A stretch of 64,000 bases of DNA from Minisyncoccia bacterium (GCA_041737125.1 JBGSSJ010000011.1:33568-97567); one strand, 5' to 3'. Shown: positions 12,528 through 29,500, counted from the stretch's first letter. The notes: a model not told the origin generated them from the letters alone. Program-made: numbers and translations.

Positions 12528-14633
12528 TTAGATATCTAACTTTGCCATTTTGGCGTTGGATTGTATGAATGCTTTGCGAGGTGGAACTTCAGAGCCCATG
12601 AGCATATCAAACACTTTGTTAGCATCTTCGGCATCAGTAATTTCTACTTGTTTAAGTATACGGCGTGCCGGATCCATAGTAGTCTCCCAGAGTTCTTCGG
12701 CATTCATTTCTCCGAGACCTTTATATCTTTGGATATGAATTTTCGTATTCTTCTTTCCTTTTGTATCTTCTTCCGCATCTTCTTCTATCTCTTCAGCAAC
12801 TTCACCTTCTTCATTTATAGATTCTGTTAGTAACTCTTCAAGCTTTGGAGCATCTTTACCAAGCATTACGTCGCGTTCTTCATCTGAATATGCATAAGAA
12901 ATTTCTTTACCCTTTTTTATTTTAAATAGTGGAGGTTGTGCTATGTATACATAACCTGCATCGAGTACTTGGCGGAAGTAACGATACATAAGAGTAAGTA
13001 TGAGCGTACGGATATGAGCTCCGTCCACGTCGGCATCTGTTGCAATTATAATCTTGTGGTAGCGCATTTTCTCAAGATCAAAAGTGTCACCAATAGATGT
13101 ACCCATGGCAATAACTAAGTTCTTTATCTGCTCACTTCCTAGCATGCGATCAAGTCTGGCGCGCTCCACATTTAAAATTTTTCCGCGAAGTGGAAGGATC
13201 GCTTGAGTCTTTCTATCTCGTCCCATTTTGGCTGTACCGCCCGCAGAGTCTCCCTCTACTATGAATAGCTCAGAGCTCTCAGCATCTTTAGTCTGACAGT
13301 CTGCAAGCTTACCAGGCAGCGTCATACCCTCAAGTGCACCTTTACGAAGTACTGAGTCCTTTGCAGCTTTAGCAGCTTTACGAGCACGAAGGGCAAGTAA
13401 GGATTTATTTATTATTTGTTTTGCTTCATCTGGATTCTCCTCTAAGAAATTAGAAAAGGCGTCCCCAAATACGGTAGCCACAGCACCTTGGGCTTCAGTA
13501 GAACCCAACTTTGCTTTTGTCTGACCTTCGAATTGTATTTCACGAAGCTTAACAGAAACTACAACCATAAGACCTTCTAGTACATCATCGCCTGTAAAAG
13601 CACCATCTATCTCTTTTATAAGATTATTCTTCTTACCATAAGTATTAAGCACACGAGTGAGTGCGGTCTTAAACCCTGTGATATGAGTACCTCCTTCTGG
13701 GTTATAAATGTTGTTGGCGAAAGGTACTATGTGTGAGTTCACATCATCTACATACTGCAATGCTACTTCCACACCTACTTCGTCTTGCTCTCTCTCTACA
13801 TAGAAAACAGTAGGGTGAATGACTTTTTGTGATTTATTATAGAACTTCACTAAAGAAACTAATCCCCCTTCGAAGTAGAAAGTGGTACTCGGAATTTCAA
13901 GTCCAAGCTCTGAGAACCAGTAAATATCTTCGAAATTCTTTTTCTCTTTACTACCTGTTATAGGATCCCACTCACGCGCATCGATAATATCTATACGTAA
14001 ACCTTTGACCAAGTACGCCTGTTGACGTAAATGATTCACCACTGTATTCCAATCAAACCTAACTTGTTTGAAAATTTCTTCATCTGGAGTAAAAGATATA
14101 ATAGTACCGTGTGCTTTCGATGAGCCTACTTTCTTTACTGCCGCTTTCCTTTTACCTTGTGAATACTCCTGCACGAAACGTCCTCCTTCACGATGAACTT
14201 CTGCTTTAGTATAAATAGAAAGTGCATTTACAACAGAAGCACCCACACCGTGGAGTCCTCCCGAGACTTTATAACCACTATCATCACCTCCAAATTTACC
14301 TCCGGCATGGAGTGTAGTCATGACAGTTTCAAGTGCAGAGACTTTTGTCTTCGGATGTATGTCAGTAGGTATACCACGCCCATTATCCACAACTCGGACA
14401 CTGTTGTCTGGAAGTAGTGTGACCTCAATGTGATCGGCAAATCCACCCATGGCTTCATCACGTGAGTTATCAAAGATTTCCCAGATTAAGTGGTGAAGTC
14501 CATCCACGCCAGTAGACCCGATATACATCCCAGGACGGCGACGTACAGGCTCGAGTCCTTCTAAGACTGATATCTGATCAGCACCATATTTCCCTTCTTT
14601 TTTAGTAGATTTTACTTCCTTTTCTTTTGCCAT
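12528..14633 (-). CDS. gyrB: type IIA topoisomerase subunit B (DNA gyrase B / ParE-like), 701 aa with acidic insertion
   Basis: 'LEPVRRRPGMYIGST', 'HHLIWEIFDNSRDEA', 'EGDSAGG', 'PLRGKILNVE' motifs. Confidence 0.9.
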   Translation of the reverse strand: MAKEKEVKSTKKEGKYGADQISVLEGLEPVRRRPGMYIGSTGVDGLHHLIWEIFDNSRDEAMGGFADHIEVTLLPDNSVRVVDNGRGIPTDIHPKTKVSALETVMTTLHAGGKFGGDDSGYKVSGGLHGVGASVVNALSIYTKAEVHREGGRFVQEYSQGKRKAAVKKVGSSKAHGTIISFTPDEEIFKQVRFDWNTVVNHLRQQAYLVKGLRIDIIDAREWDPITGSKEKKNFEDIYWFSELGLEIPSTTFYFEGGLVSLVKFYNKSQKVIHPTVFYVEREQDEVGVEVALQYVDDVNSHIVPFANNIYNPEGGTHITGFKTALTRVLNTYGKKNNLIKEIDGAFTGDDVLEGLMVVVSVKLREIQFEGQTKAKLGSTEAQGAVATVFGDAFSNFLEENPDEAKQIINKSLLALRARKAAKAAKDSVLRKGALEGMTLPGKLADCQTKDAESSELFIVEGDSAGGTAKMGRDRKTQAILPLRGKILNVERARLDRMLGSEQIKNLVIAMGTSIGDTFDLEKMRYHKIIIATDADVDGAHIRTLILTLMYRYFRQVLDAGYVYIAQPPLFKIKKGKEISYAYSDEERDVMLGKDAPKLEELLTESINEEGEVAEEIEEDAEEDTKGKKNTKIHIQRYKGLGEMNAEELWETTMDPARRILKQVEITDAEDANKVFDMLMGSEVPPRKAFIQSNAKMAKLDI

Positions 14634-14737
14634 AATATGGTATATTTTAACATAAAATACTACGTATTCCTAATCCATAAATACCTAAGATAGGCTTATA
14701 AATAAGGTTATAATTGGTATATTGTTATTACGATTTT

Positions 14738-16117
14738 CTACTTATTAAGAGTATTCTCTTTGTCTTCATAAGGAGGAAGTGGGACTACATCCCCCGTTTC
14801 AGTAGTAGCTTGGTCGGACATAATATTTTTCTCTATAATTTCTTCTTTTATTTCGTCCTTTAAGGAAATCTTCTTAAAGATAGAGTACGCCTTGCGCATA
14901 TGGTCTACTACATGGTGCCCGAACAAGTAGTGGATAATAAGCTCAAGTAAGAGTATCAAGACCATTAGTCCTAATAAGTACGGAGCGTATTTCTTAATTA
15001 TTAATACAAAATTAATTCCTGGATATAAATCCACATGAGCTTCTTGCATATTATCTGCTGTATCAAATGCTCTTATCATTACACGCAAACTTTTAGAATT
15101 CGTACTTGGTACTAGATATGGACTTTCAGTTTGAATAAATACAGGTGAAGCCACATTACCAGCACTTTGATCTATTATACCTACTTCATATCGATCTATA
15201 CTAGAAAGTGGGTCAGTTGTTAAGAATGATATCAGATATTTCTTCGTGCCATCTTCATCTTTTAGAATATTTATTTCGGGGTCGAATTGAGCTGGCTTAT
15301 TGGTATCAACTTTAACCTGGAAATGAGATGTATTACCCCACACACCTCGAACATTCGCACGTACATGGAAGTACCAGACTCCATCTTCTATATTCTCATA
15401 GGACGCTTGTGATGTATTCGTAGTTATAGTAGTAGGTGGAATAGAGCTCGGATTTAAGTCAAACAAAGCACTATAGCCAGTAATACCTTCTGGGCTATTC
15501 CATCTAAAAATTGGTGAACTATTGTTATACCAATGATCTTGCAGTGGGTGAGTATCAGAAGATATAGCTACACCCTCAGGGGCCTTTGGGCTAATTGAAT
15601 ACTGAGATCCACTAAATGAAAGCTTCACATCAGAACCTAGTCCATCATTTAGATTAGCACTAGAGTAATTAGTTACCGTTACCGTCGCTTCACCTGGTGC
15701 TATAGCCTTGAAACTAATGGTTGCTATTAAGCCTGAGCTTGTAACTATACCTCCAGGGATAATCCCAACGAGGCTAGCTTGTCCCTTTTTATTATCATAA
15801 CTTGGTGGTTCTACCCATATACCAAAGATAGACTTCCCTCCTGAAGGATTCACAATAGAGAGCTTCGACGAATCAAAGCTTATTTTTACATTTATTGCAT
15901 TTATATTATTATTGTTCGTATTTATATAAATTGGCGTTTCAAAAGTAGAACCCACTATGAAATTACCACTCCTCGGTGTTGTAAATATTTCTGCTCTAGG
16001 CAGGAGAGTAGTACCATCTAGATTTATAGTTTCTTGCCCATAAGAAAGTAATGGAGAAAAAGCAAATAATATTATTATGAAATTAAGAAATATATTTTTA
16101 AAAGTTATTTTAATCAT
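14738..16117 (-). CDS. surface protein with N-terminal cohesin-like module, C-terminal TM anchor and cytoplasmic 'VPLPPYE' tail (paralog 1 of 3)
   Basis: signal peptide; ~130-aa module alignable with 16114..17088 and 17045..17935 ('IFGIWVEPPSYDNKKGQASLVGIIPGG', 'LNDGLGSDV'); TM 'LLGLMVLILLLELIIHYLF' near C-term. Confidence 0.6.
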   Translation of the reverse strand: MIKITFKNIFLNFIIILFAFSPLLSYGQETINLDGTTLLPRAEIFTTPRSGNFIVGSTFETPIYINTNNNNINAINVKISFDSSKLSIVNPSGGKSIFGIWVEPPSYDNKKGQASLVGIIPGGIVTSSGLIATISFKAIAPGEATVTVTNYSSANLNDGLGSDVKLSFSGSQYSISPKAPEGVAISSDTHPLQDHWYNNSSPIFRWNSPEGITGYSALFDLNPSSIPPTTITTNTSQASYENIEDGVWYFHVRANVRGVWGNTSHFQVKVDTNKPAQFDPEINILKDEDGTKKYLISFLTTDPLSSIDRYEVGIIDQSAGNVASPVFIQTESPYLVPSTNSKSLRVMIRAFDTADNMQEAHVDLYPGINFVLIIKKYAPYLLGLMVLILLLELIIHYLFGHHVVDHMRKAYSIFKKISLKDEIKEEIIEKNIMSDQATTETGDVVPLPPYEDKENTLNK

Positions 16118-17088
16118 AAATCATCTTCTATTTTTCTAACCTGTTTAAGAATTTCTTTTTCCTTATCTTCAATCTCTTTATTGAGCATAGATAGAGTATT
16201 AATCTCTTCCTGATAAGGAGGAAGGGGCACTGTATTATCCCTAAGCTCTGCATATATTTGCTTTTCTTTTTCTAGGTCTCGAGATATAACAGAGAAGCTG
16301 TCTTCCATATTAGAACTTATAGTGATCATGCGCCTCTTTACGGACTTTTTAAATCTATCCATATAATAAACTATGAACATGAAAATAAGGAGAATTGCTA
16401 ATAGTAATAATATTAAAATAAGTGATTTATAAGGTATAGGATAGTATCCAGTATTCACTGGCTCTATTTGTTTGATTTCCTTATTTGATATTGGCTCGAT
16501 TATCTTCTGTGGTACTGGGGCTGGCTCTAACTTTTTCTCTTCTTCTGTAGGTTTTTTAATCGGAAGGTTTGATTCATTTATTGTAATGATACTCTTGCCT
16601 CTACTAGAAATAACCTCAGTACCCAAGCCATCATTTGCGAGTATGCTACCTTTAGACAGACTCAGATTAGCAGTCCCTAAGGCCTTCCCCTTAAATACAA
16701 GCACTAAGACCACACCCTTACTACCGGAAAAACCATTCAATACAATACCTTCAAAAGAAACGGTTCCGGAATTATTTGAATAGGATGGTTCTTGTGCCCA
16801 AAGGTTTATAATTGAACCATTTTTAGAAACAGAAGAAAGAGTTAGGATGTCTTTAGGGAATGAAACTTGCCCAGACACAGCATTAATAGATTTGTCACTC
16901 GAAACAACTACTTTTATATTTATCGAATCACCTACACTATATGAACCACTATTGAAACTAAATCCTAAATCAGAAGATGCGGAAGCTTCTTGCACATAAA
17001 ATGATGAAATAAATAAAATTACGAGTACTAAACAATATATTAAATTATTTTTGTTTTTTGAAAACATACTTTTTAAATTTAAGAACAA
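16114..17088 (-). CDS. surface protein with cohesin-like module, C-terminal TM anchor, coiled-coil cytoplasmic tail with 'VPLPPYQ' motif (paralog 2)
   Basis: signal peptide; 'INLWAQEPSYSNNSGTVSFEGIVLNGFSG', 'ANDGLGTEV'; TM 'ILILLLLAILLIFMFIVYYM'. Confidence 0.6.
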   Translation of the reverse strand: MFLNLKSMFSKNKNNLIYCLVLVILFISSFYVQEASASSDLGFSFNSGSYSVGDSINIKVVVSSDKSINAVSGQVSFPKDILTLSSVSKNGSIINLWAQEPSYSNNSGTVSFEGIVLNGFSGSKGVVLVLVFKGKALGTANLSLSKGSILANDGLGTEVISSRGKSIITINESNLPIKKPTEEEKKLEPAPVPQKIIEPISNKEIKQIEPVNTGYYPIPYKSLILILLLLAILLIFMFIVYYMDRFKKSVKRRMITISSNMEDSFSVISRDLEKEKQIYAELRDNTVPLPPYQEEINTLSMLNKEIEDKEKEILKQVRKIEDDL

Positions 17089-17935
17089 GTAAGATTATTA
17101 TTACAACTAAGAAGATAATATAATTATAGGCTGAGAATCCTTTTTTCTTGGTTGGTTCTATCGTTAGAGTTGAACTCTCTCCAGAAAAATTGATTGCGCG
17201 TATATTTATTATACTACGGCCACTTTGATCTTCCAATAAATAGGGACTTTCGATTTCCTTCCAATCCTTATTCCCTTCTTTTACCATCACAGTATCTACT
17301 CCTGTTTCTTTATCATTCACTCTGAATACAAGAGTATACTTATTATTAAATAAATTTTCATCCTGCGTTACATATGCATCTATGGTCGGCGCACTGTCAT
17401 CCTTACTTTCGTAAACAACCCTATTCTCAGATTTATCAATAAAAATATATGTAGAATTACCTGCAGTATATATAATACTTCCCTCACCATCATTGAGTGT
17501 TAAAGATAGTGGCGATATATTTATTGCGGTATTGCCACTACTTTTACCCTCGAAAACAAGCCTGATTAAGGTACCAGGCGCCTTATTACTACTATTGAAT
17601 GGATCTATTAATCCAGAGAAGCCGGTAGGTACAATACCCGCAAAAGATATTTTATTGTTATTTAAAACTGCTTTTTCAATCCAAAAAGTTATAAAAGACT
17701 TCCCTTCTTCAGCTCTAATAAGAGTAAGATTTTTATCGTCAAAAGTGACACTACCTTCTACTCCATTTATAGATTCATTCTCTGTATTAATCATTATATC
17801 AACATAAAATTGCTCACCAATGCTGATATTCTCCTCGGAAACTTTTAAAATAGAAAAAGACGCATCCACATGATGGGTCGACATCAATAAGACAAAGAAT
17901 ACTGCAAATAATATTTTTAAGATAAATTTTTTCAT
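17045..17935 (-). CDS. surface protein with cohesin-like module and C-terminal TM anchor (paralog 3)
   Basis: signal peptide 'MKKFILKILFAVFFVLLMSTHHVDA'; 'ITFWIEKAVLNNNKISFAGIVPTGFSG', 'LNDGEGSI'; C-terminal TM + KKYVFKKQK. Confidence 0.6.
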   Translation of the reverse strand: MKKFILKILFAVFFVLLMSTHHVDASFSILKVSEENISIGEQFYVDIMINTENESINGVEGSVTFDDKNLTLIRAEEGKSFITFWIEKAVLNNNKISFAGIVPTGFSGLIDPFNSSNKAPGTLIRLVFEGKSSGNTAINISPLSLTLNDGEGSIIYTAGNSTYIFIDKSENRVVYESKDDSAPTIDAYVTQDENLFNNKYTLVFRVNDKETGVDTVMVKEGNKDWKEIESPYLLEDQSGRSIINIRAINFSGESSTLTIEPTKKKGFSAYNYIIFLVVIIILLVLKFKKYVFKKQK

Positions 17936-17940
17936 AATTA

Positions 17941-18876
17941 TTAACCTGTCCAGTTATAAGCCATAATACTAAAATCGACTAGTGTAACTTTGGTATCGTT
18001 ATTCAAATCCACTTTCGCTGGTATATTTGTTTTCTTATACCAGAAAGCCATAATTGAAAAGTCCACCAAGTTTACGTGATTATCACAGTTAAGATCACCA
18101 CGGAGAGTAGAACATAGTACTTCTTCTTTCACTTTCGTCTCATTGCCAACCAGGAAGGATAACGGTGAAGTGAAAGAACTAACTCTAGTGTCTATAGCGC
18201 TTTTGGATTTGGTTTGGTGCTTACCTAATTCTAGTATTGCTGTGTCTAAATTATACAAATAAACACCATTAGTATTAGATTTAATCTTGAAGAAATATTC
18301 TGGATCTGAATGTACAGATATAGTTATATCACTCGATGGCACACTCTGACCAAAGATAGCGAGATTATCCCCTTTTTTAACTTCACTTTTATCTATGTCT
18401 ATAGTAGGAGATAGATATATGTTGCCGATATTTACAGTTGTCCCACTTGTAATATATAAAGGGAAGGAAAAAGACTGGGATTTCCTACCTTTTGCGTCTT
18501 CACCATAGACTGAGAAAGTGTAGTTCCCAGTCGAAAGGTTAGTAACAGACACAGAGAAATTCGCCCCAGGATCAGAAATAGTATTTACTACAATGACACC
18601 ATCTTGCAGTATGAATACTCTTGATAATGGATATGCCATACCAGAGAAATTTACTACAGTCTGTGGTGGATTAACGCCACCACCACCACCACCACCTCCA
18701 CCACCTCCAGGTGGGGCAATATTCGAACTGACGATAGCCGATATGGATATATTATCATTGACGACAATATCCACTCCGTAAACAAAAATGGGTGTAAATA
18801 ATAAAAAAATAATTAAAAATACAATATTTTTATTTAATTTATTCTTGAACATTAGAAGATTTATTAACTGATACAT
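17941..18876 (-). CDS. secreted protein with poly-Gly tract and C-terminal dockerin-like tandem Ca-binding repeats
   Basis: signal peptide; 'PPGGGGGGGGGGGVNPP'; C-terminal 'DLNCDNHVNLVDFSIMAFWY' + 'DLNNDTKVTLVDFSIMAYNW' match dockerin D-x-N-x-D-x-x-V-N-x-x-D repeat pair. Confidence 0.6.
   Translation of the reverse strand: MYQLINLLMFKNKLNKNIVFLIIFLLFTPIFVYGVDIVVNDNISISAIVSSNIAPPGGGGGGGGGGGVNPPQTVVNFSGMAYPLSRVFILQDGVIVVNTISDPGANFSVSVTNLSTGNYTFSVYGEDAKGRKSQSFSFPLYITSGTTVNIGNIYLSPTIDIDKSEVKKGDNLAIFGQSVPSSDITISVHSDPEYFFKIKSNTNGVYLYNLDTAILELGKHQTKSKSAIDTRVSSFTSPLSFLVGNETKVKEEVLCSTLRGDLNCDNHVNLVDFSIMAFWYKKTNIPAKVDLNNDTKVTLVDFSIMAYNWTG
18669..18707. repeat. (GGN)n trinucleotide tract encoding 11 consecutive Gly in dockerin protein
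   Basis: plus strand ccaccaccaccaccacctccaccacctccaggtgg. Confidence 0.8.
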
Positions 18877-19876
18877 TTAGGCTATCATGCGCTTTCTGTA
18901 TGATATATCTATTGTATCTTTTAATAAGTCTTTTACCTCCAAAAAATATTACTATGAATATAACGAGTAGACATATTAGCAATTGCCATGGGAACACAAA
19001 GAAGAAAGCGTACTTACTAGTATGAATACTATTTGTACCGTATTCTAAGCTAAGTTTTGCGAAATAAGGTCCGAATGCATAGTTCTGCCATTGATAAAGT
19101 GCATCACTGAAAAACTTTTCAATTTTATTATCTGGACTAATGAAGTCATTACTACGTGGATTCTTCACCCAATCAATATCAAAGCGTCTTGTTGAATTAG
19201 GTAGGATGTTACCATTGGTGGGATTCGCATCAATACTATCTTCTGGTATGTATAGTAAGTCATGCATTCTTATCTTCCCAACTGGTTTAATTCTATCCCC
19301 ACCATCGTTTTTAAATCTATAAGTAAAAGAAACAGGCAGAGTATTATAGAAAACTTTATTATCTAGTGTATCAAAGCTTATCAATCCCCCAGCCTCTTTT
19401 ACGTCACCAGAGACAGATAGGAGTATCAGCATGCCTACTTTTGCTCCAATAGAGACTGCAGATGCACCTGTCCCGGTCGGATTAGTACCCCAGAAAATAG
19501 CAGCAAAGTGTCCTCCCGGGGTTGCATTTTGTGGAATATTAATTAATACAGGGACGATAACACTACCTCCAGGTGGCAGTGCGACAGATTCCTGTACAGA
19601 AATCCATTTATCCAAATCCTCTTTTGATTCTACGAAAGATGGATTACCAGACTCGCCTTGCGCTTCGAAGTTTGCAAAAGAAGAATAGAAAATTTGGTTT
19701 GCATCAGTATCATTAGTAAGAGTCATCTCTTGTTGTATTGTCTCACCTGGATTACCTTTTATCTCTATTCGAGGTGGAGATACAGATATAGCTTCAGCTC
19801 TAAATGTAGAAAAGAAAAATACACCCGATATGACGGCAATCTGTATAAGCATGCGTTTTGTAAATCGGATGTTCAT
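18839..19876 (-). CDS. secreted protein with C-terminal TM anchor (cell-surface; family uncertain, DUF916-like impression only)
   Basis: signal peptide 'MLIQIAVISGVFFFSTFRAEA'; C-terminal TM 'WQLLICLLVIFIVIFFGG' + basic tail. Confidence 0.55.
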   Translation of the reverse strand: MNIRFTKRMLIQIAVISGVFFFSTFRAEAISVSPPRIEIKGNPGETIQQEMTLTNDTDANQIFYSSFANFEAQGESGNPSFVESKEDLDKWISVQESVALPPGGSVIVPVLINIPQNATPGGHFAAIFWGTNPTGTGASAVSIGAKVGMLILLSVSGDVKEAGGLISFDTLDNKVFYNTLPVSFTYRFKNDGGDRIKPVGKIRMHDLLYIPEDSIDANPTNGNILPNSTRRFDIDWVKNPRSNDFISPDNKIEKFFSDALYQWQNYAFGPYFAKLSLEYGTNSIHTSKYAFFFVFPWQLLICLLVIFIVIFFGGKRLIKRYNRYIIQKAHDSLNVSVNKSSNVQE

Positions 19877-19894
19877 TTTTCTTTTATTTAATTA

Positions 19895-20983
19895 TTAGTA
19901 AGTAGCAGTAGCGACGTATGTGTGATTTGCAGTATAAGTTCCTGCTTCTGTTACAGCATCAATGTTTGCAAGGTATCTTAGTGAGTATGTTGTTGTAGCA
20001 GAAGGACCTCCGACACTAGCTAGTGTTACTGCAGTTGATGCAGTAGGAGTCCATGCATATCCAGATGCTGCGAACGGTGCTTGGACGGCACCACTTCCGC
20101 CAGATGCTGTAGCTCTGACTCCGAACTGTTCTGTGGCAGGAGATGAAGCAGTGTTAACTGCTAATGGTGTTATTGTATTTGCTCCTGAAGTAAGAGTTGC
20201 ACCCTGAGCTGTAATTACATATCCTGATGTAGCATTTGTTCCAGCTGTGATATTAAAAGCTTCTGTCTCTGTAGTAGTAGGACAAGTTACGGCTCCAGGA
20301 TCAGTTCCTTGAGCGAAACAGGCACCAGCAGTACGCAAGTTACCGAAGAATACTGTATTGTCAGACAAAGCAAAAGATATACTAGGCACAACTAAAGCAT
20401 TCACCACAACTACATCATCAGATACGATTGGTATACCTATAGTTCCAGTATCAGTGAAAGTTCCAGATATATATAATAGTGTAGTTCCAGCAGAACCGTT
20501 TGTTATCTGTTGATCACCAGTAGCACCCGTAGTAGCATTTGTTCCTATTTCAATAACTATCACACTACCACCAGCTACAGCTGTAGTGCCGTTCGTAAAT
20601 GTAATTACTGTACCTGAAGTGCGAACTACTCCCCATGTCGCAGCAGCGGGAGCAGCAGCGAGAGTCACATCAACACCATCATCAGTTAAATCTATGTCAG
20701 TAAAATCAAGTGGGGCAGGAATACTCGTGGAGTTATCGAATGTAAGTATTATAGTCTGTCCAGAAGCAACACCAGTTGGAGTAGTGAATGTTATAGTATG
20801 GTTTGCTACAGTTGAAGCTTTTTCTGCATTTGTCGCACCTGTTGCAGGTGAGAGCCTATCAGACATAGCGGTAAGAGATGCAGCTTCTGCTACTTTTGTA
20901 AAGTATGGAGTAAAAGAAGTTACACATACGAACATGAACATTAGGACGACGTTGGTAATATTTAAAAGTGTTGATTTTTTCAT
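19895..20983 (-). CDS. secreted Thr/Ala/Gly-rich beta-rich surface protein (paralog A), C-terminus ends in alternating aromatic pattern ...HTYVATATY
   Basis: signal peptide (AEA|AS); paralogous to 21084..22082 ('FGNLRTAG'/'FGNLSAGAS', 'EQFGVRA'/'EQFGLRA', 'YSLRYLANID'/'YSVRYVGNID'). Confidence 0.55.
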   Translation of the reverse strand: MKKSTLLNITNVVLMFMFVCVTSFTPYFTKVAEAASLTAMSDRLSPATGATNAEKASTVANHTITFTTPTGVASGQTIILTFDNSTSIPAPLDFTDIDLTDDGVDVTLAAAPAAATWGVVRTSGTVITFTNGTTAVAGGSVIVIEIGTNATTGATGDQQITNGSAGTTLLYISGTFTDTGTIGIPIVSDDVVVVNALVVPSISFALSDNTVFFGNLRTAGACFAQGTDPGAVTCPTTTETEAFNITAGTNATSGYVITAQGATLTSGANTITPLAVNTASSPATEQFGVRATASGGSGAVQAPFAASGYAWTPTASTAVTLASVGGPSATTTYSLRYLANIDAVTEAGTYTANHTYVATATY

Positions 20984-21083
20984 ATTTAATAAATTTTAAT
21001 AATAAATTACTCTTTAAGTAGATATATTTTACCATATTTTAAAGGTAAAATATACAAAGATAGCTGTTGATAACTATCATAAA

Positions 21084-22082
21084 CTAAAATGTTCCAGTGA
21101 CCACATAATTGATATGAGCTACATAGGCACCCGCTGCTGTATTACTGTCTATATTACCTACATATCGGACTGAGTAGACAGTATTACTATTATCCCCCGC
21201 CCCGCTTGCAAGCTCGTCTGGGAATGATCCAGTATCGAGAGCAAAACCTGAAGCAGCATATGGCGAAGTTACAGTGCCTGTACCACTAGTTACACTTGCG
21301 CGTAATCCGAACTGCTCTGTCCCTACGCTTGGAGCAGTATTTGTACCACCGATAGCATCTATAGTATTGCCTCCATATGTAAGAGTAGTTCCATCCACAG
21401 ATAGAACGTAGCCACTAGGCGCATTTGTACTAGCAGAAATTGTATGCGCCTCGACTTCGGTACCACTTCCAGTACTTGTATCTGCATATCTCGACGCTCC
21501 GGCTGATAAATTACCAAAGTTTACAGTATTAGCGGAAATTGAGAAATTAATACTAAGTGGAATAATAGTAGCACAAAGCTTGCGTGTATAAGCCGAACCA
21601 TCACCCAATGTGGCATTATCAGAGCCGGACAAAGATAGAAGTGTTGTATCGTAGCCAGAACAATTGTTGTCTTGATAGCCACTTGATATCTCATTTGCGG
21701 TGACAGAATCAGAAAGACAGACATTAGAGCCATAAGTATTCACACTTGTCTCTTGCATGTGGGCATTCGTCGCCGAAGAAATTCTTCCTAGTATTTCATA
21801 GTTACCACTACAAGAGTTCCCTATCGACAAAATACCAGTACAACAGACAACATTATTATCATAATTAACGTTGGATTGGCTGGGTAATTCTGCATGAGCA
21901 TTAGTCGAACCCGACATACGAAGTATTACAGTTCCCGTACAAGAGCCCACGGTCGTAACCGAGCAAGTAAGTGCACCATAAGCATAAGATGTAGGTATCA
22001 TAATTAATAAAGCCAAAAATAGAGACAAAATAGTTCCCGAAATTTTATCTTTTTTAGTTTTATCAATTATGTTTAAAAACAT
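21084..22082 (-). CDS. secreted Thr/Ser/Gly-rich surface protein (paralog B), C-terminus ...INYVVTGTF
   Basis: signal peptide; paralogy to 19895..20983 as above. Confidence 0.55.
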   Translation of the reverse strand: MFLNIIDKTKKDKISGTILSLFLALLIMIPTSYAYGALTCSVTTVGSCTGTVILRMSGSTNAHAELPSQSNVNYDNNVVCCTGILSIGNSCSGNYEILGRISSATNAHMQETSVNTYGSNVCLSDSVTANEISSGYQDNNCSGYDTTLLSLSGSDNATLGDGSAYTRKLCATIIPLSINFSISANTVNFGNLSAGASRYADTSTGSGTEVEAHTISASTNAPSGYVLSVDGTTLTYGGNTIDAIGGTNTAPSVGTEQFGLRASVTSGTGTVTSPYAASGFALDTGSFPDELASGAGDNSNTVYSVRYVGNIDSNTAAGAYVAHINYVVTGTF

Positions 22083-22090
22083 TTTATAGA

Positions 22091-22504
22091 CTATTGCTCG
22101 TCCAAAGGCACACTCTCTGCATTATTCTTTGTATTTAATGGAGCAATATTAATTATCTTATTTGCTACAGGATCAAACAATATAGCCTTTTTAGCATTAC
22201 TATATATGAGGACTTTATAACCAACTTTTGAATCTGCAAAGAATGCCTGATCTCGAAGTGCTTCTGGATCAGAGACCGTAGCTATGGTCGGAGTCTCACC
22301 TTCTGGAAGAAGTACAATTCTACCTACTTTTTTTGAAAGACTCTGTGCTTCAGCCATAGATTCTTGAACACTAGTATCTAAAAGCTTACTCTGTTTATAG
22401 AAGTAGACTGCTGCCACCCCCAATCCTATTACCAAGATAATAAGGATAAATAAGATATATTTTTTTAACAATGTATTTTTCATATTTATAATTCTATTAC
22501 ACAA
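22091..22504 (-). CDS. small N-terminally membrane-anchored hypothetical protein
   Basis: TM 'ILFILIILVIGLGVAAVYFY' then soluble domain; likely true start at MKNTLL (22483). Confidence 0.5.
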   Translation of the reverse strand: MCNRIINMKNTLLKKYILFILIILVIGLGVAAVYFYKQSKLLDTSVQESMAEAQSLSKKVGRIVLLPEGETPTIATVSDPEALRDQAFFADSKVGYKVLIYSNAKKAILFDPVANKIINIAPLNTKNNAESVPLDEQ

Positions 22505-23542
22505 TTACAATTTATTCAACCTACTATCTTTACCTATCTTTTCATAGAAAAAGTGAGAGATTTGTTTAATGATATTTTGTTGCTTATTTAAGTCGTTACC
22601 TCGAGTCATCACGCACAATATGTATGGCGCCTCCAAATGATATACAATACCGCAGTCGTGCAACTGAATTATATCTTCCTTTACATTTTTAAAGTCAGTA
22701 GGAAAACGCTCACCATATTTATGTGCAACTTTTATTTTATTTGGAACACCGGCCACTAATCCATCATGATAATTGTTTTCTGAAAGTATTTTTAATACTG
22801 TTTCCGAATGTTCTCTATTCAAATATGAAGCATTGAAAAGAATACGATAAAATGATGCCATATCCTTAATTCGTAGGAATATTTCATTATCTTGATTTAC
22901 ACGAACAACGCCAATATTGAGAAAAGTATTATCAATATATTCTTTTGGGATCTGTTCATATAGCATTGCAGTTGCGACATTGTCTGAATTCTTAATCATT
23001 TTTTCTGCAAGCACAGCGAGCGAGTACGGTTGACCAATTTGAATATCTGTAGGCTCTGAATTTATCTGATCTGGAATGTTAGAGAAAAACCGCTGTTCCG
23101 CAATAACCACTTTGGAGAGAGCTGAAGGTGTAGTTTCTGACCATTTATAAAGAGCAATGATAAGTGGTGTCTTAAGCATACTTGCAGGTGTAAAGTATTC
23201 CTTTTCATTTATACCTATCCATGGACCATTATTCAAATCTCGAAAGTATACAGATATGTGATTAATATATTTCTCTTCTTGAATTTTTTCTACAAATCTT
23301 CGCACCTCGCTAGAATCTAGCATAGCCTCTGAAGAAGATGTGGATAGCTCGAAATCAAGAATAGGATTAGTAAACTTATATTCCCCACCCTTCTCTCTCG
23401 TAATAGTTCCCTTTGTTTGATTCTTAAGATTTATGATTCGTGCTTGCTGAACTATAATTATGACCAAAAATACTATTGCTATCGTGCAGAAAATAGTTGT
23501 TTTCTTATTCAAGCTATTTTTATTTATTTTGGGTATTGCCAT
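22505..23542 (-). CDS. membrane-anchored class A beta-lactamase-fold serine hydrolase (PBP/beta-lactamase family)
   Basis: N-terminal TM; S-x-x-K 'PASMLKTP', SDN 'KNSDNVATAML', KTG-like 'HKYGE'. Confidence 0.65.
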   Translation of the reverse strand: MAIPKINKNSLNKKTTIFCTIAIVFLVIIIVQQARIINLKNQTKGTITREKGGEYKFTNPILDFELSTSSSEAMLDSSEVRRFVEKIQEEKYINHISVYFRDLNNGPWIGINEKEYFTPASMLKTPLIIALYKWSETTPSALSKVVIAEQRFFSNIPDQINSEPTDIQIGQPYSLAVLAEKMIKNSDNVATAMLYEQIPKEYIDNTFLNIGVVRVNQDNEIFLRIKDMASFYRILFNASYLNREHSETVLKILSENNYHDGLVAGVPNKIKVAHKYGERFPTDFKNVKEDIIQLHDCGIVYHLEAPYILCVMTRGNDLNKQQNIIKQISHFFYEKIGKDSRLNKL

Positions 23543-23544
23543 AA

Positions 23545-26500
23545 TTAATATTCTGAGACTGTAGTATTATCAGTATTTTCTTCTATTATAAGTGGTGCTT
23601 CCACAGTTACTTTTGGGCTCGGAACAGGCGTACTCTCCTCTATTATAGGTGCGGGTTCATCTGGAGAAGTTACTTCCTCAATAATTATTTCCTCAGTTAC
23701 TATTTCGGGTACTAGTTCAGTAGAGGGATTTTCCGGTGATGGGACATCATCTTCTTGGGGTACTTGTTCTAGAGGAGCTTCTGTAGGTATTTCTATGTCG
23801 AGTCCTTCTACTAGACTCTCTACAATTTTAGGATCTTTTACGCCTAATGCTACCCAAGAGAAGCGTATATCCCGAGGTGCTTTCTTATTCAAGAATATTG
23901 TGAACCCTGTTTGATCTTTCTCTACCACTAGGTGGCGTACATCTTCGAAGAAGAATGCTTCAGCAGTGGCATCATCCATATTATCTGTAACCTCAAATGT
24001 AATATTTGTGGTTATCACAGGCGTGGTCACATAAGGCTCATCGAATACTACTCGCACTCGTCGGTCTTCCTCTTTTATAAGAGCAAAACCTGCTGTATCT
24101 TTGTTAAATATTGGTGGGATAGTGAACTCTGTCTGTGCACCGAAGACTACAGAGCCATCAAATGTAGTACTATTGGCAAAGAATGAAAGTCCACTAAACT
24201 GTGCTTTGCCTTCGAAAGTACTCTCTCCTGTTGCTTTGAAATTTGCTGTAGTTACTGATGTGAGTGCATCAAATGCATTTGCTCCGAGCAATGTTTCAAG
24301 TGCAGTGATTCGCTCAATCAGCGCATCAAAACCAGCAATTTTAGTAGCTTCAATTTCTTGTGCAGTAATTTTACCATTAAATACTGCATTTCCGAGTGCA
24401 TCAATAGTCATAACCGCAGCATCTTCACTATTTTTCTTTACAGAGAAGATTCCATTATTAAGAACAAGCGCGAGTGATCCATCTATTCCCCCAGTGAGCT
24501 GGCTTGTCACTACAGTATCAGCAATAAGTGTAGGTGTAAGAATTTCAAACCCAGCAGCAATTCTATCTGTGAAGAAGCTCTCTAGTGGAAGAGCGTTTGT
24601 CTCCTTGTCATCACGTGTTGCACGCAAGAATGACATGATAGACCATTGTGTTCCAAGCTCTGCTGTAAGTCCATCAACTGAAACATGGCCGTCTTCTATA
24701 GAACCATATTCTTGTGCAAGAATCTCTACATTTTGACCAAGTGATTCTCCAAGCCCAACAAAGAGCATAACATATCCGCACTGTATTCCTGTTGATGATT
24801 GCACTTGTTCTCCTTGCGCTTCACCTTCTACACGCTCTCCACCTACCCATGGACCTTCAGGAAGAGCAACATTTTCAAGTGCTGGAAGAGGGGCATCGCA
24901 TGAAGTCATTCCGTATGGCTCATTGAGTACACGACCTATCACTGCTCCGGCTGAAGTCGCGCGCATTGCATATCCTTCACGGGAAGACGAGGTGAGGAGG
25001 TCACCTACCTTTATAGGGCCATTTTCTGTCGTTACCTTAACAGGTACACGACCGGAGAGCGCAACAGCGTATGCATTTTCTGCTACAGGTCCTAAAATAA
25101 GTCCTGGTCGTGTGGAAATAACACCGAGCAGATTCTTTTGATACCTTCGAGAAGACTTACCAATTCCAGCTTCTTGACTTGGTTCAATGGAGACGACATC
25201 GCCTGCCTCAAGTGTTTCATTTGAGTAATAGTACTCAGCAAGGTCGGCTCCTTGACCGAGACCAAGCACATCTTGTGTGGCCCCAAAGAGACCACTAGCC
25301 ACCAAACTCATTCGAACATCCTCAAGAGCAAGGAGCGTATCTGCTTGGAGTTGTTTTATACTTACATCTTTTCTTTCTACTCTGATACCTGTACCAGTGG
25401 CAAACAAGATAGTATCCGTATATATAGCTATTGATTTTATGTCATCAGAACCAGTACCACTCCACGTAGTACCAAAATCATCTTCTTCAATACCAGAATC
25501 ACTACTATGCACTTCTGTTTTAATTCCTCCTGCCCCAGCATTTGTAAATGTTGAAATTCCTCCACCATCTGCCCCATCATCAGTACCAACATACAAACTA
25601 CGAGTCTTGTTAATTTGTGTAGGGGCATCAACAGCAATAGAGGTTACGTTATTTGTAGATCCATAGAGCTTAGAAGGAGAAACTCGGTAATCACTTGTTG
25701 CATCTGGTGTGACCGACCATGCAGGCGCCACAGTAAAGGCAGTTGCATCATTTGAAATAATATTTCTTGTTTGTCCAGCCCCAGTTCCTCCAGTGATTTC
25801 AACAACAAGCGAAGTAAATGAATTTGGAACATAGGTTGCAGTCGTACTTCCTATTGTCGTTCCACTGAAAATATCAGCATTCTCAACGGAGGTTTGTGGT
25901 CGTATGAGATGTGTTCGTCCATCAAGGAAGCGTCTATTTGCAGAAGCAGAAACGGTACCTGAAGATGTCGTTGCACCTGCACTCCACGTGAATTCATCAA
26001 TTTCTCCATCCCAGAAACTATCCCCTGTGGCGCAGTTAGCCCCAGTACATCGGCCACCAATGGTGAGCACTTGTGCTGCGTCAAGTGTTGCTGTTGCTGC
26101 AAGAGCTGTATCACACGCAGCTGCCAAGCGTCCGTCTATATACATACATAAGTCTGTGTCAGTATTCGTAAGCAAGAAATGATGCCACTGACCATCGTTC
26201 CATGTTCCAGAAGAAGTCAAACCGTCATCCATCGACAAAGTTCCCACAGTTGTCCATGTCCCATCATCATCAATACCTGCAGTGATAGTTCCTGTAGTTG
26301 TCATACCAGCATAGATACAAGCGGCAGCTGTAGGAGTTGCAGGAGTATAACATCGCTCAAAGAGCACATCAGCTGCTGCGGTCGTTGAATGTTTAAACCA
26401 AAGCGAAACCGTAAAGGAAGTTGCTGCAACGTTGTTGTCTGTATCACTGTCACACGTGCCGTCCGCATTGGCATCACTACAGAGGTACGAGTTATTATTG

Positions 26501-29500
26501 AAATTCACTGACCCTCCTCGAATACCATTACCTCCAAATGTTGGTGCTGTTGCGCCTGCTTGGTCAAGTGGATTTCTGGTCGTCCCCGTATTTCCAACCG
26601 CACTATTTGTAGATGTCGCACCTACTGCATCATCAAAAAGGTACGCTGAACGGACTCCTCCATTCATATACGGAGTTGCACTATCCTTCGTTGTGATCTT
26701 TGACCATGAGGCATTCGCAAGTGCACCTCCTGATGTGTGCACTTCTGCAAGACCTTGGTTTGTACCGACAAACACAATATCACCTGAGTCAATCTGTCCC
26801 GCTGCAGCAGCTTCCCTTGCAGCAGAACCACGCTCAATCACTGCAAGAGCGCTCGGTGAAGTCGAAATAGTGGGAACAGCCCCCTCAAGTGTAATCGGCG
26901 TATTCCCGGCGAGTGTTTCGTCATACCATCGTGTAGGAGTTCCGTTTGCCTGTGTTGTTATCACCGTATCTACTCCGCGCCATTCTTCAAGTTGAGCGCG
27001 CGTTTCATTCGTCGCATACATACGACCACGCTTAGTCATGTACACCTGATTGTAGTCATCATTTGTTGCATCAGAATAGTTGATGACCTTTCGTGCTCCC
27101 ATATTGATAACAGACACTCCAGAGTCAGTAGCAGCTGCAATAATAGTGACTCCAAGCATTGGTCCTCCTTGAGAATCAACTGGCGCAATAAGTGTACCCG
27201 CTCTTCCTTCCATGGATCCAGTCTGAACATTTACTGACACATCATTGACTGTGTTGTTGATAATAGCAAAACCTGTCTCTGCATTAGCAGCATACGTGGC
27301 AGTTGAATTTCGATTGCCAATATTTATATCTGCTTGAGTCCTGTTTGTAGTGTTATATCTATATAGAACATCTTGTTTAAAATCAAATGCATATAAACCT
27401 GTAGCAGAAGCCCCGTTTGTACCAACATAAATAACACCATTTTGAGCAGTTACTCCAGAGGGGTTGTTGTTAGTATCTGCACCGAGTGCATAGGTGCCCG
27501 CTTGAGTAAACTTCATCCAAAGTGAATTATCAGCACTGTCAAATATATACAGTCCATCAGCAGTCGTAGCAATAATAGCCTTACGAGGAAAGGCTGAACT
27601 TCCACAACGATCATCAGTTGAGATACTACATGCATCTCCTGCCCCATCGTCTTTAGCCTCAGTTGCCCAAGATCTTTGCATCATCTCTAGAGAGTTACGC
27701 CACTCACCTGCATCAACATCAACAGATGTATCGTATATAAATGTATCTATAACCCCAGTGAGACTCCGTGCAATAGTTCCCCCTTTTACAATAAGGTCTC
27801 CATATACAAGTGCATTACCACGACTTATAGCGGTACCGACTTGGAAAATATCGTTGGTTGTTGAAGATCCATCAGAGAGAACAAGTGTTCCGTTATCTGC
27901 AAGTGTCATTTGTGGAGTTGCATCAATAAATCTGATGTCGCTATCCCATCCAGAACCAATCACAAGTGCATTCTCTGTTGCTGCAGTACCTGTGATGTTT
28001 GCGATATTTAAACCATTAAATGTCTCATCACCTGATGGTGTGTTTACTGGAATGAGTGTAATGTTGAGTCCTGAGTTTGTGTTTGTTGTTCCGTTTCCGA
28101 CTTCCATTGCAATAGAGAGCCCATCGACTCCGTCAGTGACTATCCCTGTTGTTCCACCAGTTAAATTTACTACCATCGAGTCGGCGGTAGGTATAACATT
28201 GTTCGCAGTGTTCTGTATAGTGATAGAGCCCAAGGTTGAAGTGTTGCCGGAACTATCTATCTGGAAGAGGTCACCGTTACCAACAGTAAAGAGTGATGCG
28301 GGTGATGCATCTCCGATACCGACGTTACCATTATTAAAAATAAAACCATTACTAGGACTATCACCATTTACTGCTAAATACACACTAGAACCATTACCAC
28401 TAAAATCACCTATGTAAACATTATCTAAGGCTTCAAGATAAATATTTCCACTGGACGCTCCATTCGTAACGTCTAAAATACCTCTAGGAGCTATAGTTCC
28501 TATACCTACCCTCCCGCCCATATCTGGCACCAACAAGGCATAATTATCCGTCCCTCCTGTTGCACTTGCATATAACGCTACATTAGTAGATGACGTTCCT
28601 GTTTTAACATTGGTAAAATAACCACCATAGGTCGTTTGAGTTGAAGTAGCGTTTGCACCCGACTGTGCGACTTCAAATATTTTCTGTGCATTTGATGCTG
28701 CAGCAGTAGAAGTAGACGAGAGTTTGAGTCCTGTTGCGCCCGCGAGTGTATTCCATTGCCATTCTTGAGTGTAGTCCGCATTGTTGATAGTGTTGGTAGC
28801 TCCTGCTGCAGAGAGACTAGAAAGTGCAACCGCTCCTCCACAAGAAGCAACTGAAAGCGTTCCTGATCCGTTTGACTGGAGACATCCAGATGCATCTGCA
28901 GCAGGAAGAGTCCATGTGTATGACGCAGTAACAGCAGCGGGAGCTTGGAGTGCTGCAAAGTCTGTCCCTCCTCCTGTTTCGACAAATCGCAAATCAGCCC
29001 CTGCAAAGAGTGATGTGTTCCCTGATCCATCTACTTGGAAGAGGTCGCCGGAGCCGACAGTGAAGAGTGAAGCGGGTGATGTGTCTCCAATCCCCACATT
29101 CCCACTATTAAGTATCCTCATCGCTTCAGTGGCTCCGTTGTTCCCCGTCTGGAAAATAATATCTGCACCTGTTGTTCCCACTCCTGAAGTTGAGCGAAGC
29201 GTTAGTGGAGATGTAGTAGTGGTACCTCCGATAACAAGTGGTGTGGTGATGTCTGTGGTGAATGTTGGAGATGTAGAGAAGACAGCAAGGCCAGAACCAG
29301 TTTCGTCTGTGAGAGCGCTTGCTAAGTTTGCAGATGACGGAGTAGAGAGCCATGTAGAAATTCCACTACCGAGTGTGGTTACAGAAAGTGCACCTGTTCC
29401 TCCTGATGTAGTAACAAATCCATTCGTAGAAAGTCCTGAGAATGTGATACTACCACTTGATGTGATACCTGTGGCTGCAATAATTGCTCCTGTACTATCT

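Follow-up and report, generated by a model that had tools for sequence, protein, structure and literature searches.

What do four adjacent minus-strand genes at positions 14738-18876 of a 64,000-nucleotide stretch of DNA from a Minisyncoccia bacterium (GCA_041737125.1, JBGSSJ010000011.1:33568-97567; the whole stretch is called the window below) do for the cell that carries them? A preliminary description of the sequence saw here three consecutive paralogous genes (coh459, coh324 and coh296) for membrane proteins with cohesin-like modules and an adjacent gene (doc311) whose product ends in dockerin-like repeats, and proposed a non-cellulosomal scaffold that docks secreted partners and carries a conserved signal inside the cell. 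That description made no mention of the Pam-type pilus operon in which the cluster lies. Most likely, the four genes fasten the base of a pilus to the cell membrane. In its full form, this reading holds that they are the conserved membrane-anchoring end of a Patescibacteria Pam-type pilus operon and that a dockerin-cohesin joint tethers the pilus base; we give it about an even chance of being right.

Open reading frames (ORFs) corresponding to coh459 (14738-16117), coh324 (16114-17088, with the NCBI database start probably at 17067), coh296 (17045-17935) and doc311 (17941-18876) were found on the minus strand. The three coh proteins are ca. 30% identical to each other over their N-terminal modules in BLASTP comparisons and are, therefore, paralogues, as had been claimed: coh296 matches coh324 with an E value of 2e-16 (30% identity over 168 amino acids (aa)), coh324 matches coh459 with E 2e-14, and coh296 matches coh459 with E 7e-13. 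The Pfam Cohesin model (PF00963) recognized coh459 (33.4 bits, cutoff 24.1); coh324 and coh296 gave no Pfam Cohesin match of their own at E<=1. Several of the 68 database homologues of coh324 are annotated as “cohesin domain-containing protein”, and PF00963 is matched by 15 out of 40 coh324 homologues (best match 4.8e-11). When a full-length profile of the cohesin family was compared with PDB sequences, only weak matches to cohesins were retrieved (5aoz_A, E 0.077). Since the sequence alone left the cohesin fold unsettled, structure prediction was needed. The AF2 model of coh324, built on the alignment of homologues, has an overall pLDDT of 80, which rises above 90 over the cohesin module (residues 32-164). 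All of the best 50 Foldseek matches of this model in the PDB are cohesins, with target TM-scores of 0.6-0.75; they include non-cellulosomal cohesins of Archaeoglobus fulgidus (2xdh) and C. perfringens (2vo8/2jh2). The coh296 protein is tied to cohesins only by its paralogy to coh324. We consider it confirmed that the three paralogues carry real cohesin modules.

The cohesin module of coh459 (15641-15955) follows a signal peptide and is accompanied by an FN3-like “HPxxxWY” domain and an Ig-like domain; a transmembrane (TM) helix (14936-15007) that ends in HYLFGHHVVDH precedes a 70-aa cytoplasmic tail. In coh324, a signal peptide is followed by the cohesin module (16576-16974) and, beyond a disordered linker, by a TM helix (16369-16425); the protein ends in a conserved cytoplasmic tail of two helices (16117-16356). 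The coh296 protein has a signal peptide and a cohesin-like module (17441-17860); an Ig-like domain comes next, and a basic tail of 11 aa is left after the TM helix (17081-17137). Each of these three proteins has one cohesin, and no multi-cohesin scaffoldin is encoded in the cluster. Orthologues of coh459 in three related loci (L008, L013 and L046) are 58-63% identical to it and have variable acidic or Pro-rich tails.

Hydropathy analysis revealed an N-terminal signal-like hydrophobic segment and a single C-terminal TM segment in each of these proteins. In the positive-inside check, five to six lysines or arginines were found after the TM segment of coh296, coh324 and p345 (the product of the gene upstream of doc311), which fits an N-out, C-in orientation. 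No such residues follow the TM segment of coh459; here, a C-in orientation was assumed, given a signal peptide and just one TM segment. The prediction of type-I membrane proteins with cytoplasmic C-termini is in this way upheld by residue charge for coh296 and coh324 and by assumption for coh459; of the cytoplasmic tails that were also predicted, that of coh296 is just 11 residues long. A conserved His-rich motif, ELI(L/I)HYLFGHH(I/V)xDH, marks the cytoplasmic end of the TM segment in the coh459 subfamily, while the remaining tail is variable. The motif is kept in orthologues from L008, L013, L043, L046, L060, L072 and L073 and could be a metal or pH site.

The C-terminal repeats of doc311, DLNCDNHVNLVDFSIMAFWYKK-(7 aa)-DLNNDTKVTLVDFSIMAYNWTG, are encoded at 17944-18096. 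The window protein scored 19.1 bits with the Pfam Dockerin_1 model (PF00404), below the cutoff of 22.9; 24 of 25 doc311 orthologues match this model, and most of 2,329 doc311 homologues bear a precomputed PF00404 annotation. A profile of the doc311 family matched solved type-I dockerins (2y3n_B, E 1.3e-4; 5nrm_B; 1daq_A). As in known dockerins, both EF-hand-like DxNxDxxxxxxD loops, each with its helix, are visible in doc311, and the two repeats are nearly identical and symmetric. The tandem repeats noticed earlier are, we conclude, a confirmed, real dockerin. The expectation that several secreted partners would be docked fared less well: doc311 is the single dockerin ORF in the window, and its family is an operon neighbour of a cohesin gene in every locus where it was found (see below). 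The label “non-cellulosomal” was apt, as doc311 carries Ig domains and not an enzyme, and Pfam and NCBIfam searches of the cluster revealed no glycoside hydrolase, enzyme cargo or WxL-domain protein.

The genes upstream of doc311 place the cluster in a pilus operon. Pam pili, described in 2026 in Candidatus Mycosynbacter amalyticus, are donor-strand-exchange filaments of two-domain pilins, in which each subunit uses its linker strand to complete the truncated Ig domain of an adjacent one; the system further contains TM-anchored PapD-like chaperones (PamC and PamD), PamT as the tip pilin and PamR, a TM tether with an extra N-terminal strand, and has been reported from Saccharimonadia and Microgenomatia (Troman et al., bioRxiv 10.64898/2026.03.03.709456). 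Two pilin genes are located upstream of the dockerin and cohesin genes, with the p345 gene in between. Both products exceed the cutoff (55 bits) of the NCBIfam model NF058581 (CPR_Pam_pilin_C): pil362 (19895-20983, minus strand), a two-domain Pam-type pilin with a putative donor (linker) strand VVVVNALV at 20390-20413, scores 81.9 bits, and pil332 (21084-22082, minus strand), a Pam-type pilin with a Cys-rich N-terminal domain and the first pilin of the operon, scores 65 bits. Pilin orthologues in L002 and L009 also match NF058581. Scores with the PamT equivalog model were 30.8-44.3 bits (30.8 for pil332), far below its cutoff of 240; pil332 may be the distal or tip subunit. No Pam model other than pilin_C and PamT matched the operon proteins in NCBIfam. 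Upstream of the pilin genes, g137 (22091-22504, minus strand), which codes for a small membrane protein with an N-terminal anchor, heads the conserved operon; its orthologue in L002 is 50% identical and occupies the same position, and g137 is present in 18 related loci.

The p345 gene (18839-19876, minus strand) codes for a candidate two-domain PapD/WxLIP-like chaperone that is analogous to PamC/PamD. The structural model of p345 is that of a PapD-like chaperone with two domains and a TM helix, so that the membrane-anchored PapD/FimC-like chaperone of the Pam system has its counterpart here; the Pfam WxLIP_PGBD match was sub-threshold (16.6 bits, cutoff 27.3). Neither an usher nor another assembly platform was detected in the operon by Pfam and NCBIfam scans. 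A single protein of the PamR type, with an N-strand, two FnIII domains and a TM helix, was not recognized in the operon either. Instead, doc311 has an N-strand, two Ig domains and a dockerin end, and the TM helix is found on the cohesin proteins.

To what extent is this arrangement conserved? A scan of one genome per species retrieved at least 534 loci that encode relatives of the cohesin protein, and the 80 best were examined; all of these appear to be metagenome-assembled genomes of Patescibacteria, ca. 16 records titled Gammaproteobacteria or Deferribacteres being taken as mislabels. ORFs were called on the related loci and searched with iterated hidden Markov models (HMMs) built from the window proteins, which gave 82 distinct loci. 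The gene order g137 (optional)-pilin(s)-p345-dockerin-coh296-cohesin with tail recurs throughout this set. In L002, all seven genes (g137, two pilins, p345, doc, coh296 and the cohesin with tail) are collinear with those of the window, at 45-57% identity. A doc311 homologue is present in 69 of the 82 loci, and a cohesin gene begins within 500 bp after the dockerin gene in 69/69; nearly every related locus has a coh296 orthologue directly after the dockerin gene. In 30 loci with enough flanking sequence, the dockerin-cohesin module stands immediately after pilin and chaperone genes.

Three classes of loci can be distinguished. Class I (18 loci) has two-domain pilins and p345. In class III (12 loci, among them L018, L020, L050, L062, L066 and L071), small proteins of 165-180 aa and a short (ca. 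200-aa) p345-like gene are found upstream of the dockerin-cohesin module. The small proteins start with TATVTATVTVQNISVSVSDG... and are homologous to the pilin linker and C-terminal domain (hhalign probability 94.4%, E 8e-8); their kinship with pilins rests on hhalign, NCBIfam having returned no match for them or for the short p345-like proteins. They are minimal pilins, composed of an N-terminal “TATVTATVTV” strand and a C-terminal domain, that replace the two-domain pilins, just as the short gene replaces the 345-aa chaperone. In class II (13 loci: L011, L024, L028, L030, L034, L043, L045, L046, L049, L057, L059, L060 and L072; a further 8, which have a long dockerin protein, are partial), only g137 is left, and it immediately precedes the gene of a longer dockerin protein of 430-470 aa. 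The N-terminal part of this protein has a “SSNF.L...GG..SS.NF...GFLYFP” segment, which matches positions 9-78 of the PamT model (E 4.9e-9), and an FN3 domain comes after it. No pilin or chaperone was detected near the class II genes, so that a dockerin-cohesin module need not have pilus genes beside it.

The N-terminal part of the dockerin protein offers a possible connection to the pilins. In the window, mature doc311 has, after its signal peptide, an N-terminal strand segment, VDIVVNDNISISAIVSSNIAPP (18709-18774). A poly-Gly leash of 11 residues (18676-18708) separates this segment from two Ig-like (Big_6) domains, which precede the two-repeat dockerin. The family layout is the same, with a strand of the pattern “V.I[ST]A.V”, an optional Cys-rich module between strand and poly-Gly, and a dockerin ending in WTG. 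In alignments, the strand resembles the pilin linker “QVAVSATV”. The strand pattern was found in 16 of 40 N-termini of short dockerin proteins and in 15 of 32 pilins, compared with 54 of 2596 other ORFs; the median score with a position-specific scoring matrix (PSSM) of the pilin linker was 6.8 bits for the short dockerin N-termini versus -2.7 bits for other ORFs (Mann-Whitney p 2e-16).

Several features of the dockerin family were noted along the way. The Cys-rich module, “CG.G..E.GE.CD...L.G..C...GF..G.L.C...C.F.TS.C”, is present in many doc311 homologues (e.g., in L009, L012, L021, L036 and L079) and absent from the window protein; 4 of 25 family members match Pfam DUF4215. In L044 (7362-8855, plus strand) and P0255, the ORF of the dockerin protein also takes in, at its N-terminal end and in the same frame, a GIY-YIG nuclease-like segment, and a relative is named “GIY-YIG nuclease family protein” by NCBI; probably, a homing-endonuclease gene lies just upstream or the start was mis-called there. 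A 62-aa poly-Pro ORF on the plus strand of the window (18593-18781) is the reverse complement of the doc311 poly-Gly codons and was discarded as an artefact.

The cytoplasmic tails had attracted attention because of a VPLPPY motif thought to be a conserved, PPxY-type handle. The core is indeed common to coh324 and coh459, two of the three paralogues, in the versions VPLPPYQEEINTLSMLNK (coh324; VPLPPY at 16213-16230) and VPLPPYEDKENTLNK* (coh459; VPLPPY at 14768-14785); the full pattern proposed earlier is not an exact fit to coh459. Among the 68 coh324 homologues, VPLPPY occurs in two, the window protein and an orthologue 71% identical to it, and in none of the 164 cohesin ORFs in the 82 related loci. 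A relaxed VP[LV]P[PN] pattern retrieved only two further tails, both of the coh459 type, in L013 and L073. The contig of the closest relative, L085, has four cohesin genes; the tail of one reads AIPLPPYHEEINTL and another ends in ...DTVPLPNYENNNEEDNK, the motif versions being IPLPPYHEE and VPLPNYENN. At the DNA level, the two window paralogues are identical at 28 of 39 positions across the motif versus 10 of 36 immediately upstream. Given its recurrence in L085 and its rarity elsewhere, VPLPPY is, judging from sequence comparison, a short linear motif confined to this lineage, where it reappears on paralogue tails that have little else in common. It is no signal of the family as a whole, and “conserved” applies to this lineage only. 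Since neither the motif nor its LPPY core is conserved in orthologues, a PPxY/WW motif as a feature of the family was rejected. No WW-type partner is known from bacteria.

What is conserved is the tail that contains the coh324 motif, a region of ca. 75 aa with two helices and roughly the pattern “...KSF..L.ED...E..IF.KIK...pLT..E..F...FKKDIE.AEK.I.KEI...”. As can be seen from the alignment and the AF2 model, the motif adds three residues to the loop that joins these helices. The coh324 tail scores 65 bits with the tail HMM. Among 1.84 billion proteins, the tail profile retrieved 773 representative clusters, almost always at the extreme C-terminus; a cohesin module was found in 71 of 82 tail-profile matches of at least 280 aa, most of the others being N-terminally truncated. 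When the tail was compared with Pfam, a few scattered matches of the coiled-coil type, all below threshold, were the sole result, and no Pfam family covers it. The coh459 tail does not match the family tail HMM. We also considered that it could be a truncated copy of the family tail and rejected this, as no remnant was found downstream of the stop codon. Our guesses as to the role of the tail are clustering of the anchors or binding of an intracellular partner. Two proteins, P0309 (464 aa) and P0310 (563 aa), have the tail domain twice in tandem, with a hydrophobic segment between the copies in P0310.

The nature of the domains, the conserved gene order and the spread of the families are shown here; from them we infer the following arrangement. 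Pilins would leave the cytoplasm through Sec and be taken over by p345, the PapD/WxLIP-like chaperone in the membrane; they would polymerize as the linker strand of each pilin completes the truncated Ig domain of its neighbour. With a donor-like N-strand on a poly-Gly leash and no acceptor domain, doc311 would cap the cell-proximal end of the pilus: a strand donor that lacks an acceptor domain would end a base-growing fibre at its base. The dockerin at its C-terminus would fit into the cohesin modules of the single-pass membrane proteins coh296, coh324 and coh459. Whereas the PamR tether of Mycosynbacter is one polypeptide, the tether here would consist of two parts, a dockerin adaptor and cohesin anchors. 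One of the anchors bears the conserved cytoplasmic helical hairpin, with VPLPPY as a lineage-specific motif in the hairpin loop. The logic may be compared to that of PapH, the terminator and anchor of P pili of the chaperone-usher type: PapH is the last subunit, donates a strand, has no usable acceptor groove, stops growth and anchors the base. Unlike PapH, doc311 has no pilin fold, and what holds it would be a membrane protein, through a cohesin-dockerin joint, instead of an outer-membrane usher.

Several observations weigh against such a tether. The strand of the window doc311 itself (ISISAIV) scores only 3.0 bits with the pilin-linker PSSM, the N-strand of the dockerin protein showed no covariation with the pilin linker within loci (p 0.56, n=13), and the 13 class II loci (with the 8 partial ones) have the dockerin-cohesin module with no detectable pilins or chaperone nearby. 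The presence of two to three cohesin genes per single dockerin gene is unexplained by the model, and the Pam paper contains neither “cohesin” nor “dockerin” (bioRxiv 10.64898/2026.03.03.709456). The low strand score, the missing covariation and the class II loci, where g137, the long dockerin protein and the cohesin do without adjacent pilin or chaperone genes, would all be accounted for if the cohesin anchors simply held doc311 as a surface adhesin or spacer, with its Ig domains and Cys-rich module, co-regulated with pili and not joined to them; that the 69/69 dockerin-cohesin adjacency is tighter than the association with pilins points the same way. At the family level, however, the N-strand on its poly-Gly leash is conserved and resembles a pilin donor strand, even the long dockerin proteins have a PamT-like N-terminal segment, and the module comes right after pilin and chaperone genes in 30 loci where enough flank is available. 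We regard free display on the surface as about half as probable as the tethering of a pilus base.

The earlier proposal of a general membrane scaffold for several secreted dockerin proteins, with VPLPPY as a conserved PPxY-type handle inside the cell, draws on the confirmed cohesin and dockerin folds, on the number of cohesin proteins, which is three, and on the sharing of VPLPPY by two paralogues, with raised DNA identity across it and recurrence in the closest relative. Yet the only dockerin ORF in 64 kb is a fixed operon partner, the cluster encodes no enzymes or other cargo, the motif is missing from more than 95% of family members, and WW-type partners are not known from bacteria; we consider this proposal improbable. 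To a similarly low degree we credit the idea that the cohesin-like proteins are pilus assembly factors, for example, a platform in place of an usher or an additional chaperone that accepts strands of pilins, and that the dockerin ligand is found elsewhere, for example, in the cell wall or on the host surface. It would supply the assembly platform that the operon lacks, the Pam study having likewise found no trans-envelope machinery, and two to three cohesin paralogues per operon would suit subunit-specific roles. The fold matches are nevertheless specific to dockerin-binding cohesins, a PapD-like chaperone is already present in the operon, and the strict adjacency of dockerin and cohesin genes (69/69) is what a cognate binding pair would predict. 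Returning to the tether of the pilus base, it can be extended to a joint for Pam-type pili throughout Patescibacteria, made of a module that is otherwise known from cellulosomes; the tail hairpin would link the base of the pilus with a partner inside the cell, so as to position the pilus or to sense force or contact, and lineage-specific proline motifs such as VPLPPY would tune this contact; this extension strikes us as rather unlikely, though less so than the scaffold or the assembly factors.

Comparison with known systems reveals both likenesses and differences. Like the Mycosynbacter Pam system, the operon is specific for the Candidate Phyla Radiation (CPR), codes for Pam_pilin_C pilins with a conserved linker/donor strand and for a Sec-exported PapD-like chaperone with a C-terminal TM helix, has no usher, and lies near a gene for a large “tail fibre-like” surface protein. 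It differs in having one chaperone-like gene instead of two and, in place of a recognizable PamR-type tether, a dockerin adaptor and two to three TM cohesins at distal operon positions; moreover, to judge from the source names of homologues, the host lineage appears to be Paceibacteria or Parcubacteria, probably the former. A cohesin fold on a surface anchor is shared with cellulosomal scaffoldins and type-I pairs (C. thermocellum OlpA/OlpC, 3ul4/4dh2; C. cellulolyticum, 2vn6). Unlike in cellulosomes, a TM helix provides the anchor in place of SLH domains or sortase, the operon itself encodes the one dockerin partner, and one anchor has a conserved cytoplasmic tail. The two Ig-like domains and C-terminal TM helix of p345 are also found in the WxL/WxLIP clusters of Firmicutes (DUF916-DUF3324-TM; PDB 9i1y, 9i25), where WxLIP has been proposed to insert a β-hairpin strand into a partner domain (Hassan et al. 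2023, PMC10599100). WxL-domain proteins, in contrast, were not detected here, and WxL clusters have not been described with cohesin or dockerin modules (PMC10599100).

Cohesin and dockerin domains of this kind are already named in databases (“cohesin domain-containing protein”, “dockerin type I repeat-containing protein”), and non-cellulosomal cohesin-dockerin pairs are already known. No relevant paper emerged from a literature search that combined cohesin or dockerin with CPR pili. Three features appear to be undescribed in the literature searched: a dockerin-cohesin pair fixed at the end of a Pam-type operon, the donor-strand-like N-terminus of the dockerin protein, and a cytoplasmic tail domain specific to cohesin proteins. 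CPR/Patescibacteria attach to their hosts through surface appendages, and how a Pam pilus is tethered in a cell that has no outer membrane or usher is still a model. The dockerin-cohesin pair at the operon end offers a concrete and testable anchoring mechanism; if true, it would be the first structural role of cohesin-dockerin pairing in pilus biology, and the tail domain, which belongs to no Pfam family, would be a possible, previously undescribed link between the outside and the inside of the cell. If the tether is wrong, the cluster is an ordinary non-cellulosomal cohesin-dockerin pair and VPLPPY a local curiosity.

The operon extends over ca. 14738-22504, accessory genes reach 33294, and the cluster is flanked by gyrB and pheT. 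A scan of 14400-23700 for promoters and terminators returned sites no commoner than in shuffled sequence. Between the pilus operon and the accessory gene farthest upstream, a minus-strand gene (22505-23542) encodes a membrane-anchored protein of the β-lactamase family (PF13354, E 3.8e-34); its homologues are present in 10 of the related loci, and it may serve in cell-wall remodelling for the appendage. The gene at the head of the same string (23545-33294, minus strand) encodes a giant surface protein of 3,249 aa, which is anchored in the membrane at its N-terminus and contains numerous internal repeats of the form “...GNVGIGDTSPASLFTVGSGDLFQV.S.G...”. Its sole Pfam match is one Laminin_G_3 domain (aa 2286-2443), and it may be the counterpart of the “tail fibre-like protein” reported beside pam operons.

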